A stretch of DNA of 64,000 bases from Escherichia coli (GCF_036507355.1 NZ_AP027877.1), one strand, 5' to 3'. Positions 25,851-46,899 are shown, counted from the stretch's first letter. Notes: generated by a model not told the origin, from the letters alone. Made by a program: numbers and translations.

Positions 25851-26176
25851 GTCGTTTATCTCGCCAGGGAACCGTTTTTACGATTGGCTTCTTAATACAT
25901 AGTCTCCGTTTTACAATGCAAATTGTTTAATATTTATACGTCTGAGCTTCTGTGCTGGTTATAAAGCACCCACTTTCATGAGATCAATTTTAGTATGTTA
26001 TTACATTGCTACGTCTGTTCTTTTCATGACGAATGGCGTTTTTTCTCTTGTTTGTATTTTTCACGAGAGCAATGAGCAGATCAAAATTCCCAAAAACATA
26101 AGATTATTCGCAATGAATCGCCACGGGTTTAACAGACACCTCAGAGTCATTTAAGATGGCTTAAAGAGAGGTGCCC

Positions 26177-26455
26177 ATGAGCGGTAAGCGTTATCCCGAA
26201 GAGTTTAAAATTGAAGCAGTCAAACAGGTTGTTGATCGCGGTTATTCTGTTGCCAGCGTTGCAACACGTCTCGATATCACCACCCACAGCCTTTACGCCT
26301 GGATAAAGAAGTACGGTCCGGATTCTTCCGCTAATAAAGAACAGTCAGATGCTCAGGCCGAGATCCGCCGTCTCCAGAAAGAGCTGAAGCGGGTTACCGA
26401 CGAACGGGACATATTAAAAAAAGCCGCGGCGTACTTCGCAAAGCTGTCCGACTGA
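26177..26455 (+). CDS. IS3-family transposase OrfA (HTH)
   Basis: MSGKRYPEEFKIEAVKQV... HTH and leucine-zipper-like region ending ...KKAAAYFAK, typical of IS3 OrfA. Confidence 0.8.
   Translation: MSGKRYPEEFKIEAVKQVVDRGYSVASVATRLDITTHSLYAWIKKYGPDSSANKEQSDAQAEIRRLQKELKRVTDERDILKKAAAYFAKLSD
26413..26421 (+). promoter_or_regulatory. Candidate programmed -1 ribosomal frameshift site (A-run) for an OrfAB fusion
   Basis: ttaaaaaaag near the end of orfA; orfB lies in the -1 frame relative to orfA. Confidence 0.5.
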
Positions 26456-26511
26456 GGTACGCCTTTATCCGTGACAACACCTGTTGCTGGCCTGTTCGCC
26501 TGCTCTGTCGG

Positions 26512-27324
26512 GTGCTGGATGTTCATCCCAGTGGTTTTTACGCCTGGCTTCAGCAGCCGCATTCACAACGCCATCAGGCAGACCTGAGGCTGACAGGGCA
26601 GATTAAACAGTTCTGGCTGGAATCGGGATGCGTCTATGGTTATCGCAAAATCCATCTGGATCTGCGGGACAGCGGGCAACAGTGCGGAGTGAACAGAGTC
26701 TGGCGACTGATGAAACGTGTCGGGATAAAGGCTCAGGTCGGATACCGGAGCCCGCGGGCACGTAAAGGCGAGGCCAGTATCGTGTCGCCCAACAGGCTCC
26801 AGCGACAGTTCAATCCGGATGCTCCGGATAAGCGTTGGGTAACGGACATAACCTACATCAGGACCCACGAAGGCTGGCTGTATCTTGCCGTGGTTGTTGA
26901 TCTGTTCTCACGCAAAATTATCGGCTGGTCCATGCAATCCCGGATGACAAAGGACATTGTCCTGAACGCACTGCTGATGGCTGTATGGCGCCGTAATCCC
27001 CAAAAACAGGTGCTGGTTCATTCGGATCAGGGCAGTCAGTACACAAGCCATGAGTGGCAGTCGTTCCTGAAATCACACGGCCTGGAGGGCAGCATGAGCC
27101 GTCGCGGTAACTGCCATGATAATGCGGTTGCAGAAAGCTTTTTCCAGTTGTTGAAACGCGAACGGATAAAGAAAAAGATCTACGGAACGCGGGAAGAAGC
27201 CCGCAGCGATATTTTTGATTACATCGAAATGTTTTATAACAGTAAGCGTCGGCATGGTTCCAGCGATCAGATGTCACCGACAGAATATGAAAACCAGTAT
27301 TATCAACGGCTCGGAAGTGTCTAG
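26512..27324 (+). CDS. IS3-family transposase OrfB (DDE/RNase-H-fold integrase core); probably made as an OrfAB fusion starting upstream
   Basis: DDE-type motifs (WVTDITYI..., HSDQGSQYTS, NCHDNAVAESFF). Confidence 0.8.
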   Translation: MLDVHPSGFYAWLQQPHSQRHQADLRLTGQIKQFWLESGCVYGYRKIHLDLRDSGQQCGVNRVWRLMKRVGIKAQVGYRSPRARKGEASIVSPNRLQRQFNPDAPDKRWVTDITYIRTHEGWLYLAVVVDLFSRKIIGWSMQSRMTKDIVLNALLMAVWRRNPQKQVLVHSDQGSQYTSHEWQSFLKSHGLEGSMSRRGNCHDNAVAESFFQLLKRERIKKKIYGTREEARSDIFDYIEMFYNSKRRHGSSDQMSPTEYENQYYQRLGSV

Positions 27325-27342
27325 ATTACCCGTGGCGATTCA

Positions 27343-45900: not shown

Positions 45901-46063
45901 AAGTATATGTGTTCAATTTGATAAACAAATTATTATTTCAACGCATGATGAAAACTTCTTTGCCTTACTCCAGCGCAAAATCCCTGCCCAAATTTTTGGA
46001 TCTAAATTCTTGCAATTGGAAAAGTTTGGTGTAGTCGTCCCGGTGCAACCCTTTGTGAACTAA
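42932..46063 (+). CDS. Rad50/SbcC-like SMC-fold ABC ATPase with long coiled coils and a central CxxC hook (1043 aa)
   Basis: N-terminal Walker A (IYAPNGFGKSSFYDAVEWAI); C-terminal signature-like FSAAQ, Walker B VVMIDDP, D-loop SMD, H-loop IISTHD; long Glu/Lys/Leu-rich heptad-like middle; CPLC at residue about 524. Confidence 0.8.
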   Translation: MKIKKVEIEAFRAYKSRSDGTFDFTNDGDVAANFVAIYAPNGFGKSSFYDAVEWAITNHMARLGGEYNKANYENAAKITKDDNVGQEILRNKYVDKNIRTKVVVSTTRPLPFERKLPKVRSNGRDLRFGDNSQRENDFFRQVILSQDEIDRFLREAKPQERYTKFMESFGGDIEIARKELSVLINDNKIELNNLNKKRESILEQLKQPIDSSIFQKFNSIAVELNKLGENIQLPDESFSSQDEYALNVSLISRRHELDSSRLTNNRTVEALEDRLLKISETELHVRSLAEQNLHLAKLVKGVADADRYQSLLDSYEKCAEDQKTTHMHMTRIIEVIDCLDDFLKIESHLLELSTSQKIISEERTKICAQLAGFETTINQLNKELKAVDDRVAILRKTVDNAGQVYLELANNRARVSNLTQQISKKEVSIKIDKSRLGELNRELTRLSELNINATSLSNGNLGTLLLEPTKVEQLTRCYAEFDVIESQIQAVHVTQKALSEQMELHERLIAIGIDYLSVRPSSICPLCTAPHPSADGLLDKIKGRNLLSELSEENSKQLLFFSTRQKEILQSIQDITQCAIDSKAQLIINLNKELSETDERLTLAGRDIYSIEAELKTLEKRTTELESLVWALSHDELVSRIEKEIGELSIKSSKLLEGKALITPQVEMLNESLKEKDSAQQKIASELEGIFSGNIYITVYKYLNENAISSSSLKSHTEKRKLEIEAEIIKCKTTIEFLTEQCAVLQQKMLSDGMWVDFVQLKLQKESLEISVARSQSVINTFYESLSNLIIIRPEYSLEKVKELIAAKVQDCHLRTKEFDRLSNNINLLIELMSSFKPYIKHTALQKDLMAEEMLIKQRERVDTTLTAERDAIVDSLKLLINNFFYEDLINSIYKKIDPHPAFKKVEFKADFDSDKPGLNIVVSDEVGEQISPILYFSAAQTNILSLSVFLASALHAKDDEGNPINVVMIDDPIQSMDSINILSTIDLLRSICVQFDKQIIISTHDENFFALLQRKIPAQIFGSKFLQLEKFGVVVPVQPFVN

Positions 46064-46093
46064 AGTGCTTGCACTGCCTCTAAACAATCTGCA

Positions 46094-46131
46094 TGCACAT
46101 CTCGTTGACTAAATTTGAAACGAGATGTGCA
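46094..46131 (+). terminator. 13-bp perfect inverted repeat hairpin immediately downstream of the ABC ATPase gene (possible terminator or regulatory site)
   Basis: tgcacatctcgtt ... aacgagatgtgca; no strong T-run. Confidence 0.4.
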
Positions 46132-46899
46132 TTGCTCGTTATAAAAATAAGGCATGTTCTAATTATCCAATCCCCATCAGTATAAGTGGGTGGATAGATA
46201 TATTTGGCCCCTTTAACAGATATGTTAATTTCCACTTTTCGCTTACAGTGGACCTGCAGCTCAGTAACTTACTCACTTTGTGCTAGGAACGGGCATTGCT
46301 AATAGTCAGAGTGTATGACCTGCTCATCGTTGATTAAGGACAGCGCTGTACTGGTTCGTTGAACCCACGGCTCACAACGGACACTCAGGTTATTATTCCA
46401 ATACGTTTAGCTCAAGTAGTATTACTACGGATAAATCATTTTATGATGGCGTGGAGAACGGGGGGATTCTGAAAATGGTAAGAAGTGAAAGGGCAAGAAG
46501 AGCTTGTTGCAGGTGGACGGACTGGTGAAGATTCCCATCTGGAGGGTGTATGCTGCCAAGTTTCCCCGCTTGCTATTGGGGATTTCCCCACCTTATTCCC
46601 CGCGACAAAATCATGTTAAGACCAGCGGATTAAGGAGAAATGATAATTCCCCCGTTTTCCCCGTATTTTCTACTTCATTATGAATGATCTGAGAGAAAGG
46701 AACCGTAGAGGACCGTAGAAAGACCGTAGCAGTGAGGTTAGGAAAAGGTACATCAGAGGATGTTGAGGTGTCTAAAAGTAACGAACATCTGCGAAAATGG
46801 CGAGAAATCCAGCAAACAAATAACGTGTTGCAACGACCAGAAATCTACCGTAGCCAAGAAAGGAAAAAGCCCCGCTTTGCAGCGAGGCCTTATGAATAT

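Follow-up and report, generated by a model that had tools for sequence, protein, structure and literature searches.

The foreign block at pheV and its distal integrase

The window studied here, a 64 kb stretch of Escherichia coli NZ_AP027877.1, carries beside the tRNA-Phe gene pheV a block of foreign DNA in which an intact tyrosine integrase gene (int) is separated from the tRNA by a four-gene operon related to the Lamassu defence systems. The only tRNA encoded in the window is tRNA-Phe(GAA), at 46900-46975 on the minus strand (ARAGORN; Rfam agrees), and an Rfam scan of 25800-47100 returned nothing besides this gene. Alignment to K-12 MG1655 identifies window positions 15397-25846 as the glc operon, with the match stopping 45 bp past the glcA stop codon, and positions 46889-53343 as pheV, yqgA and speC; the foreign block delimited in this way spans 25847-46888 and begins straight at the 3' side of tRNA-Phe. 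The 9.1 kb yghD-yghJ block of K-12 had no match anywhere in the window in this alignment.

A previous sequence-only reading of the locus had placed the block at 26114-46899, in good agreement with these limits, and position 26114 proved to be the exact left end of an insertion sequence (IS) element of the IS3 family. Its statement that the gene order at pheV differs from that of K-12, with foreign DNA where K-12 has yghD-yghJ, is borne out by the alignment, and every component that it listed was recovered: the intact integrase, a truncated recombinase, an IS2 fragment, an IS3-family element and at least two defence modules. The description of the block as AT-rich applies to two of its stretches, 40-46 kb (GC content 0.35-0.40) and 28-30 kb (0.39-0.41), and not to 31-37 kb, where windowed GC is core-like (0.49-0.54).

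The int gene lies on the tRNA strand and reads away from the tRNA, and 7,346 bp separate its start codon from the 3' end of the tRNA; as had been described, the four-gene operon occupies the interval on the strand opposite to that of the integrase. That such a distal position is unusual is consistent with the literature on classical pheV-associated genomic islands (GI-pheV), in which intP4 is found immediately beside pheV (Nhu et al., 2024; PMC11537424). The integrase is identical (100%) in strain YZ22MPE54, is maintained among relatives along with the att arm, and is presumed to be the tRNA-Phe-specific recombinase of the island. It had been called P4-type, a label that fits its domain architecture; its amino-acid identity to the classical P4-type integrase found beside the tRNA-Phe repeat in one related locus (L002) is only 23%, and its score against the NCBIfam P4-like integrase domain model is 28 bits, with a cutoff of 434.

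A direct repeat of the pheV 3' end (23-mer and 17-mer, up to three mismatches) has no second copy in the window, and the ends of the island are therefore not definable from the window alone. Its integration module is listed below.

35161-35636, plus strand: 3' part of int2 (C-terminal 158 codons), a truncated tyrosine recombinase
35718-37643, plus strand: DUF927 P-loop protein (Pfam DUF927, E = 8e-34; PHROG DNA primase/helicase, E = 4e-44)
37819-38238, plus strand: 139-amino-acid (aa) open reading frame (ORF); no PADLOC, NCBIfam or PHROG match
38366-39553, minus strand: int, intact integrase, 395 aa (Pfam Arm-DNA-bind_3, Phage_int_M and Phage_integrase)
39554-39831: int upstream region, conserved, forming the left slot boundary; one inverted GACCGTA at 39705
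39832-46369, plus strand: cargo slot, between the int upstream region and the att arm
46370-46899: attachment (att) arm, 530 bp, forming the right slot boundary; 77-93% identity among relatives whatever the cargo
46900-46948, minus strand: att core (attL), the 3' 49 nt of tRNA-Phe, island-derived; the distal repeat of intact relatives is the same 49-mer

A family of tRNA-Phe islands

Homologues of the block were sought in a survey set of 5,426 complete E. coli genomes. The int gene together with its upstream region is present, at pheV or pheU, in 133 of these, in each case on the chromosome, and is absent from K-12. About 90% of the window block is matched by three complete E. coli genomes, YZ22MPE54 (island at pheV), BKQWHE (pheU) and GPEC1189 (frvX), and about 42% of it by many more. 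Intact relatives measure about 30 kb and possess only two att repeats of 49 nt each, located at their ends (L002, L003, L006, L007). Their gene order reads tRNA-Phe, cargo, int, small ORF, DUF927 gene, int2, small-gene module, DUF262 gene, type I restriction-modification (RM) genes, a short variable end and the tRNA 3' repeat.

The distal repeat of the relatives comprises 49 nt rather than 23 and extends into the anticodon stem-loop. The att repeat of the family corresponds to the 3' 49 nt of tRNA-Phe, and the true island junction lies inside the tRNA gene, at about position 46948; homology to the copy inserted in frvX stops at this very position. The pair of flanking repeats (attL and attR) that is missing from the window is provided in intact relatives by the 49-nt repeat. 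By these features the window copy can be classed as a truncated member of the tRNA-integrated tyrosine-integrase islands.

Within the att arm, four direct repeats of ACCGTAG (46702, 46712, 46723 and 46847) fall within 150 bp and make up four of the nine such heptamers in the entire 64-kb window. We regard this array as putative arm-type sites for the Arm-DNA-binding domain of the integrase. The arm also contains five TTCCCC repeats (46562-46662, within 100 bp) that are kept in all relatives and could bind an excision factor or a DUF927 initiator.

The family extends beyond E. coli. An exact 22-mer from the arm is found in Erwinia persicina, Citrobacter braakii, three Enterobacter assemblies, Buttiauxella, Mixta, Pseudocitrobacter and Kluyvera. 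Where contigs of these other genera are long enough, int lies 2.5-6.4 kb from tRNA-Phe, and the order int2-DUF927-int recurs in Pseudocitrobacter and Kluyvera. The cargo in these genera is PD-Lambda-1, a dCTP deaminase with or without AbiTii, or a protein whose resemblance to HEC-07 is weak. The arm 22-mer was also encountered on a contig of a metagenome bin labelled Candidatus Omnitrophota (JAUYPJ010000039.1), most likely a binning contaminant. A DNA search of phage records matched only the IS2 sequence of the block, and PHROG scans of the backbone recovered integrase, primase/helicase and unknown-function families only.

A cargo slot between the att arm and the integrase

When the interval between int and the tRNA was compared across eight loci, homology was confined to 250-308 bp at the int side and about 505-535 bp at the tRNA side, while the DNA in between was unrelated. 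On the left, homology stops 250-308 bp from the int start codon across relatives carrying seven different cargos, and the slot edges coincide within about 30-60 bp among unrelated cargos and genera. The inserted cargo measures 0.9-6.5 kb. The slot is filled with some cargo in each relative examined, so that int is always distal; the shortest distance to the tRNA is 1,648 bp.

In the window, and in loci L001-L003, the slot is occupied by Lamassu genes; the cassette of the window is found in three complete genomes only. Its genes are the following.

39611-39865, plus strand: small ORF crossing the left slot boundary
40067-41119, plus strand: LmuA with MBL fold (PADLOC, E = 2e-128)
41100-42419, plus strand: LmuA, trypsin-like, with CTD4 (PADLOC, E = 2e-142; Pfam Trypsin_2 and ABC-3C CTD4, PF20280, E = 1e-59)
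42367-42942, plus strand: LmuC, middle component 1 (PADLOC, E = 4e-50; RefSeq 'ABC-three component system middle component 1' in a relative)
42932-46063, plus strand: LmuB, SMC-like ABC ATPase of 1,043 aa (PADLOC PDLC03865, E = 0, 1037 bits, residues 1-1038 of 1043)

With LmuA, LmuB and LmuC all recognised by full-length PADLOC matches, and with CTD4 in addition, the four-gene operon 40067-46063 is a complete Lamassu/ABC-3C system; 'ABC-three component system protein' is also among the RefSeq names given to its genes in relatives. It would have anti-phage activity and encodes two effector-type proteins, one with an MBL fold and one trypsin-like.

Cargo content is known from about 15 loci and 60 summary rows, out of the 133 int-bearing genomes. 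Besides Lamassu, the slot was found to hold a dCTP deaminase with an unassigned ORF (RefSeq annotation; PADLOC dCTP deaminase on L014 and L022), LeoABC (LeoB and LeoC by PADLOC, LeoA by annotation), SIR2-HerA with a PD-DExK protein, or PDC-S31 with a restriction endonuclease.

We consider it very probable that the block is a degraded, immobile copy of a family of islands of about 30 kb at tRNA-Phe whose integration module is split by a cargo slot. Such islands would target pheV or pheU in Enterobacterales, using the 3' 49 nt of the tRNA gene as att core, with the crossover taking place in the anticodon stem-loop. The 530-bp arm with its ACCGTAG repeats adjoins the core, int with about 280 bp of upstream sequence is placed farther in, and the slot between them usually accommodates an anti-phage system, here Lamassu/ABC-3C. 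The backbone past int consists of the DUF927 gene, the int2 paralogue, the small genes, the DUF262 and WYL genes, and a type I RM system reaching attR; the DUF927 helicase would replicate the excised circle. On this organization, int lies 7.3 kb from the tRNA because the family is built with a cargo slot between arm and integrase, and not through a local accident. Of the two histories offered by the sequence-only reading, the first, in which attL and int are separated by a defence cassette, is supported, as a built-in feature of the family rather than as a one-off insertion, and the odd position of the integrase is explained without anything exotic.

Several observations speak against parts of this view. 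The commonest slot content, a lone 177-aa ORF present in 43 of the 60 best-matching genomes (e.g., L010 4548-5081), has no PADLOC, NCBIfam or Pfam match; since the most frequent cargo is without recognisable defence function, 'defence slot' describes a tendency and not a rule. Given its position, the 177-aa ORF is a candidate for an unrecognised defence gene. One further cargo consists of a LysR regulator and an alcohol dehydrogenase next to the endonuclease that elsewhere accompanies PDC-S31. A second integrase, with the domain architecture of int, is also present on the island. Homologous exchange of cargo is read from the mosaic identities described next, and the sharp common edges of the slot would fit a site-specific capture as well.

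Exchange of cargo

In L005, L010 and L012, three different cargos accompany int genes that share 99.8-100% identity. Conversely, the Lamassu cassettes of the window and L003 are 99.7% identical while their int genes share 96.5% identity, and the L003 int is 99.2% identical to that of L011, which has another cargo. E. coli AW1.7 and Pseudocitrobacter have dCTP deaminase cassettes that differ by only 0.1% (99.9% identity). The combination of the same int alleles with different cargo, and of one cargo with diverged int alleles, indicates that cargo has been exchanged, presumably by recombination. Homologous recombination across the two conserved flanks would be the simplest mechanism for such replacements.

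Alternatively, cargo might enter through a dedicated site with the help of int2 or another recombinase, in the manner of integrons or GInt elements. The agreement of the slot edges to about 30-60 bp across unrelated cargos and genera would suit such a process, as would the second tyrosine recombinase on the island. However, inspection of both boundary alignments revealed no common motif or inverted repeat at the cargo ends, and no cargo-borne recombination site is evident. Moreover, L011 and L012 share the restriction endonuclease end of their cargos at 97.7% identity, as fits nested homologous exchange, and the window has retained its cargo despite a truncated int2. We therefore hold site-specific cassette capture to be unlikely and prefer homologous exchange over the conserved flanks.

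Transfer of the island as a unit into frvX

In strain GPEC1189 (NZ_CM142788.1; L001 28221-28285, L024 3900-3990), frvX is interrupted by a complete copy of the island that includes Lamassu; this copy is 99.9% identical to the window over 35161-46948. The K-12 frvX target reads CACACAA-GGGAGTGAAAATCCC-TGGTGTG, and GGGAGTGAAAATCCC matches the tRNA-Phe anticodon stem-loop sequence GGGATTGAAAATCCC at 14 of 15 positions. At the first junction, frvX is joined to GGGATTGAAAATCCC, followed by the remainder of the 49-mer, the arm and Lamassu; at the second, the distal arm is followed by GGGATTTAAAATCCC and then frvX, with a G-to-T change that is in neither parent. This pair of junctions bears the signature expected of an integrase-mediated insertion into a secondary site. 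Both place the crossover in the anticodon stem-loop and show that the island moves as a whole, with its arm, its cargo and int. The frvX insertion is also evidence that the family is still mobile.

These data bear on the second history that had been offered for the distal integrase, tandem accretion followed by decay. On such a reading, a small element consisting of integrase plus Lamassu would have inserted at pheV, on the tRNA side of an older int2 island, and the intervening att site would have eroded. The two integrases of like domain architecture, and an int2-DUF927 pair that resembles the core of a separate integrative element, can be read in this way, and tandem arrays are real at tRNA-Phe: the distal repeat of L002 and L007 is abutted by another element, which has a tRNA-adjacent integrase of its own. 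These tandem elements, however, lie beyond the distal repeat and not inside the island. The 23-mer and 17-mer searches (up to three mismatches) detected no att-like repeat that would separate int from the remaining island, either in the window or in the intact relatives, the composite gene order is kept in other genera, and int2 reads toward the tRNA, the wrong orientation for a tRNA-proximal integrase. With two att repeats only, and with the whole of about 31 kb moved into frvX as one piece, we judge tandem accretion to be a quite improbable cause of the distal int. Decay as such is real, the island having lost attR, the greater part of its type I RM system and one half of int2, but it is located at the other end of the island from the displaced integrase.

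It is scarcely credible that an event confined to one lineage, such as an IS-mediated one, placed Lamassu between pheV and an integrase that normally adjoins it, for although the window island is rich in IS scars, no IS flanks the Lamassu cassette, the same insertion with identical edges is present in three unrelated strains (at pheV, pheU and frvX), and other cargo occupies the slot of every relative examined, with int at least about 1.6 kb from the tRNA.

Decay of the island in this strain

The side of the block that faces glcA, and the site of the int2 truncation, are made up as follows.

25847-26113 (267 bp): remnant of a Tad/Flp-pilus region (its intergenic beginning), bordering the deletion on the left
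26114-27342, plus strand: complete IS3-family element, 1,229 bp (orfA 26171-26455, orfB 26512-27324); deletion junction
27343-27555, minus strand: first 213 bp (71 codons) of hsdM, start codon 27555-27553; last trace of the type I RM system
34458-35163 (706 bp), minus strand: IS2 fragment (right terminal repeat and part of orfB), 95.9% identical to IS2-type copies; it begins with the IS2 end TGGATTTGCCCCTATATTTCC

The IS3-family element is 99.8-99.9% identical to full-length copies annotated as 'IS3 family transposase' in many genomes and has the terminal inverted repeats TGAATCGCCACGGG...CCCGTGGCGATTCA; the flanking triplets are CAA and GTC, so that there is no target-site duplication. It is joined to codon 71 of hsdM at 27343 and to the glcA-side sequence at 26113, and none of the complete genomes shares either junction. 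Position 27343 of the window aligns to position 23191 of L002, within the L002 hsdM gene (21847..23403, minus strand). Compared with L002, only the 5' 213 bp of hsdM are left, and hsdS and hsdR are gone, so that an intact type I RM system is no longer present. An IS-associated deletion would have removed hsdS, hsdR, most of hsdM, the distal arm, attR and everything up to the Tad-type remnant.

A second loss affects int2. The segment L002 30308-32897 (2.6 kb), with the 5' half of int2 and an ORF of 398 aa, is missing in the window, and the 706 bp of IS2 stand in its place. In the scenario that we propose, the IS3-linked deletion would have taken the attR side and the IS2-linked deletion the 398-aa gene together with the 5' half of int2. 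Because attR is lost, the island is unable to excise. The truncated int2 is presumed to be dead, and int, the DUF927 gene, Lamassu and the DUF262-WYL block are still intact. The island of this strain can accordingly be viewed as a remnant fixed in place, whose Lamassu and DUF262 genes persist undamaged and have predicted defence functions.

The sequence beside glcA (25847-26113) is found in this position in only 37 of the 5,426 genomes. In the two of these that were examined, TB06052 and the O145:H28 strain RM12761, it leads to a winged helix-turn-helix gene and a Flp/Tad locus, and TB06052 has no sslE or type II secretion system (T2SS) genes within about 70 kb after glcA. This Tad-type remnant suggests that the ancestor probably lacked the K-12 arrangement. 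The earlier statement that the island replaces the K-12 T2SS/sslE region hence stands as a comparison with K-12 but probably not as history. Where K-12 has its T2SS/sslE genes, between glcA and pheV, TB06052 instead has a Tad/Flp locus, part of a type VI secretion system and a classical GI-pheV (cf. L008 20248-21585, and L013).

Comparison with known elements

With classical GI-pheV, the island shares the pheV target, a mosaic, modular and IS-rich make-up and a tyrosine integrase of P4-type architecture (PMC11537424). It departs from them in that classical islands have an adjacent intP4, an attR formed by the last 23 bp of the tRNA, and virulence cargo with intP4 alleles, whereas the family described here has its integrase 1.6-7.3 kb away behind a slot, a 49-nt repeat with crossover in the anticodon stem-loop, anti-phage cargo and an integrase of 23% identity. 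The low integrase identity, the 49-nt core and the slot together point to a different system on the same tRNA gene. Hence at least two unrelated integrase systems use pheV and pheU, each cutting the tRNA gene at a sublocation of its own, and the family would probably be overlooked in surveys that recognise GI-pheV by an intP4 next to the tRNA.

Both chromosomal sites are represented among the defence hotspots of E. coli as #5 (yghD-yqgA, tRNA-Phe) and #38 (yjdC-cadC, tRNA-Phe), and 'integrase-only / multiple-integrase' islands without known transfer genes have been noted in that work (Hochhauser et al., 2023; PMC10121019). The hotspot islands described in the relevant passages resemble the present family in location, in combining defence genes with integrases and in having no recognisable transfer genes; the catalogue sorts hotspots by their flanking core genes, and those passages do not mention this family, its split module or its slot.

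A fixed place within a mobile element at which diverse defence systems interchange is known from P2- and P4-like elements, where exchangeable anti-phage systems occupy hotspots between conserved genes (Rousset et al., 2022; PMC9122126). None of the P4 satellite features psu, sid, delta, alpha and cos is annotated in six relatives of the island. The P4 hotspot lies between psu and int and leaves int beside att, whereas in the tRNA-Phe family the slot itself is placed between att and int.

A different parallel is offered by the staphylococcal cassette chromosome (SCC) elements, which are likewise integrative and encode a DUF927-type P-loop helicase, a feature that suggests replication after excision. 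The recombinases of SCC elements, however, are of the serine type, and their integration site is rlmH. Against the NCBIfam SCC model Cch1 ('cassette chromosome replicative helicase'), the DUF927 protein of the window gives E = 6e-21 and 75 bits, far under the 700-bit cutoff. It is nonetheless likely to be the replicative helicase or initiator of the excised island.

In relatives, full-length int2 comprises 392 aa with the Arm-DNA-bind_3, Phage_int_M and Phage_integrase domains of int, to which it is 29% identical. Considered as a possible MpsA-type relaxase of an integrative mobilizable element, or as a member of a named recombinase family, it matched generic Xer/integrase models and the arm-binding domain only in NCBIfam and Pfam. 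The module formed by int2, the DUF927 gene and the small ORF (window 35718-38238 versus L005 17804-20123) exists in two versions with 66-74% DNA identity, in islands that are otherwise 94-97% identical. The position of the 139-aa ORF is taken in the other version by an unrelated 118-aa 'Arm DNA-binding domain' protein, and the left module adjoining this two-version part is 97% identical.

In the open-access literature searched, hotspot catalogues and classical GI-pheV work gave no description of this family or of a split att/int layout. The family is recognisable and apparently unnamed, though the kind of element to which it belongs appears to be known already. Rather tentatively, we suggest that it constitutes an undescribed family of Enterobacterales elements, defined by an anticodon-loop integrase, DUF927 and int2, in which the slot separates the attP arm from int so that cargo would travel with the integration module while flanked by homology for exchange; these elements would still be mobile and may hitchhike on phages or conjugative elements. 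The 530-bp ACCGTAG arm and int can serve as a marker pair for Enterobacterales defence genes and should also recover unannotated cargo such as the 177-aa ORF.

Other genes of the block

The remaining genes lie to the left of int2 and are all on the minus strand.

27759-29636, minus strand: DUF262-family protein (PADLOC HEC-05, E = 5e-231, residues 4-604 of 625; DUF262 annotation in relatives)
29698-30027, minus strand: function-unassigned 109-aa ORF beside the WYL gene
30068-30781, minus strand: WYL-domain helix-turn-helix (HTH) regulator (PADLOC WYL, E = 4e-15; HTH regulator/WYL annotation in relatives)
30884-34247, minus strand: backbone small-gene module, 96.5-99.4% identical to all relatives, with genes for a DUF3944/JukA-like protein (30884-31633), a 128-aa ORF, a DeoR-type protein, an LRAT-family protein, a DUF2787 protein (32977-33405) and two unassigned ORFs

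Gene names in the small-gene module are taken from the RefSeq annotation of relatives, and its ORFs have PHROG matches to unknown-function families only. The DUF3944 protein matches JukA (PADLOC, E = 6e-72); a JukB partner was not found by PADLOC among the neighbouring ORFs tested, so that the JukA plus JukB pair that defines a Juk system is incomplete. The protein of 128 aa encoded next to the JukA-like gene (both within 30884-32161) has at its N terminus a hydrophobic stretch resembling a signal sequence, and it matches no family.

The DUF262 protein is a candidate GmrSD-like type IV restriction enzyme. Together with the 109-aa ORF and the WYL gene, and at times with hsdM (window 27343-30781), it also has counterparts of 94-97% identity on plasmids of E. 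coli and Klebsiella; in the plasmid search this was the sole shared part, the integrase, the helicase and Lamassu not being shared with plasmids. The DUF262-WYL block thus seems to behave as a separate portable defence module. In YZ22MPE54, a second, partial copy of the DUF262-end segment (L002 4001-5042) is 99.8% identical to window 29088-30129; it lies beside IS1 and IS3-family elements about 19 kb off the main island, at a place where a deletion reaches glgS.

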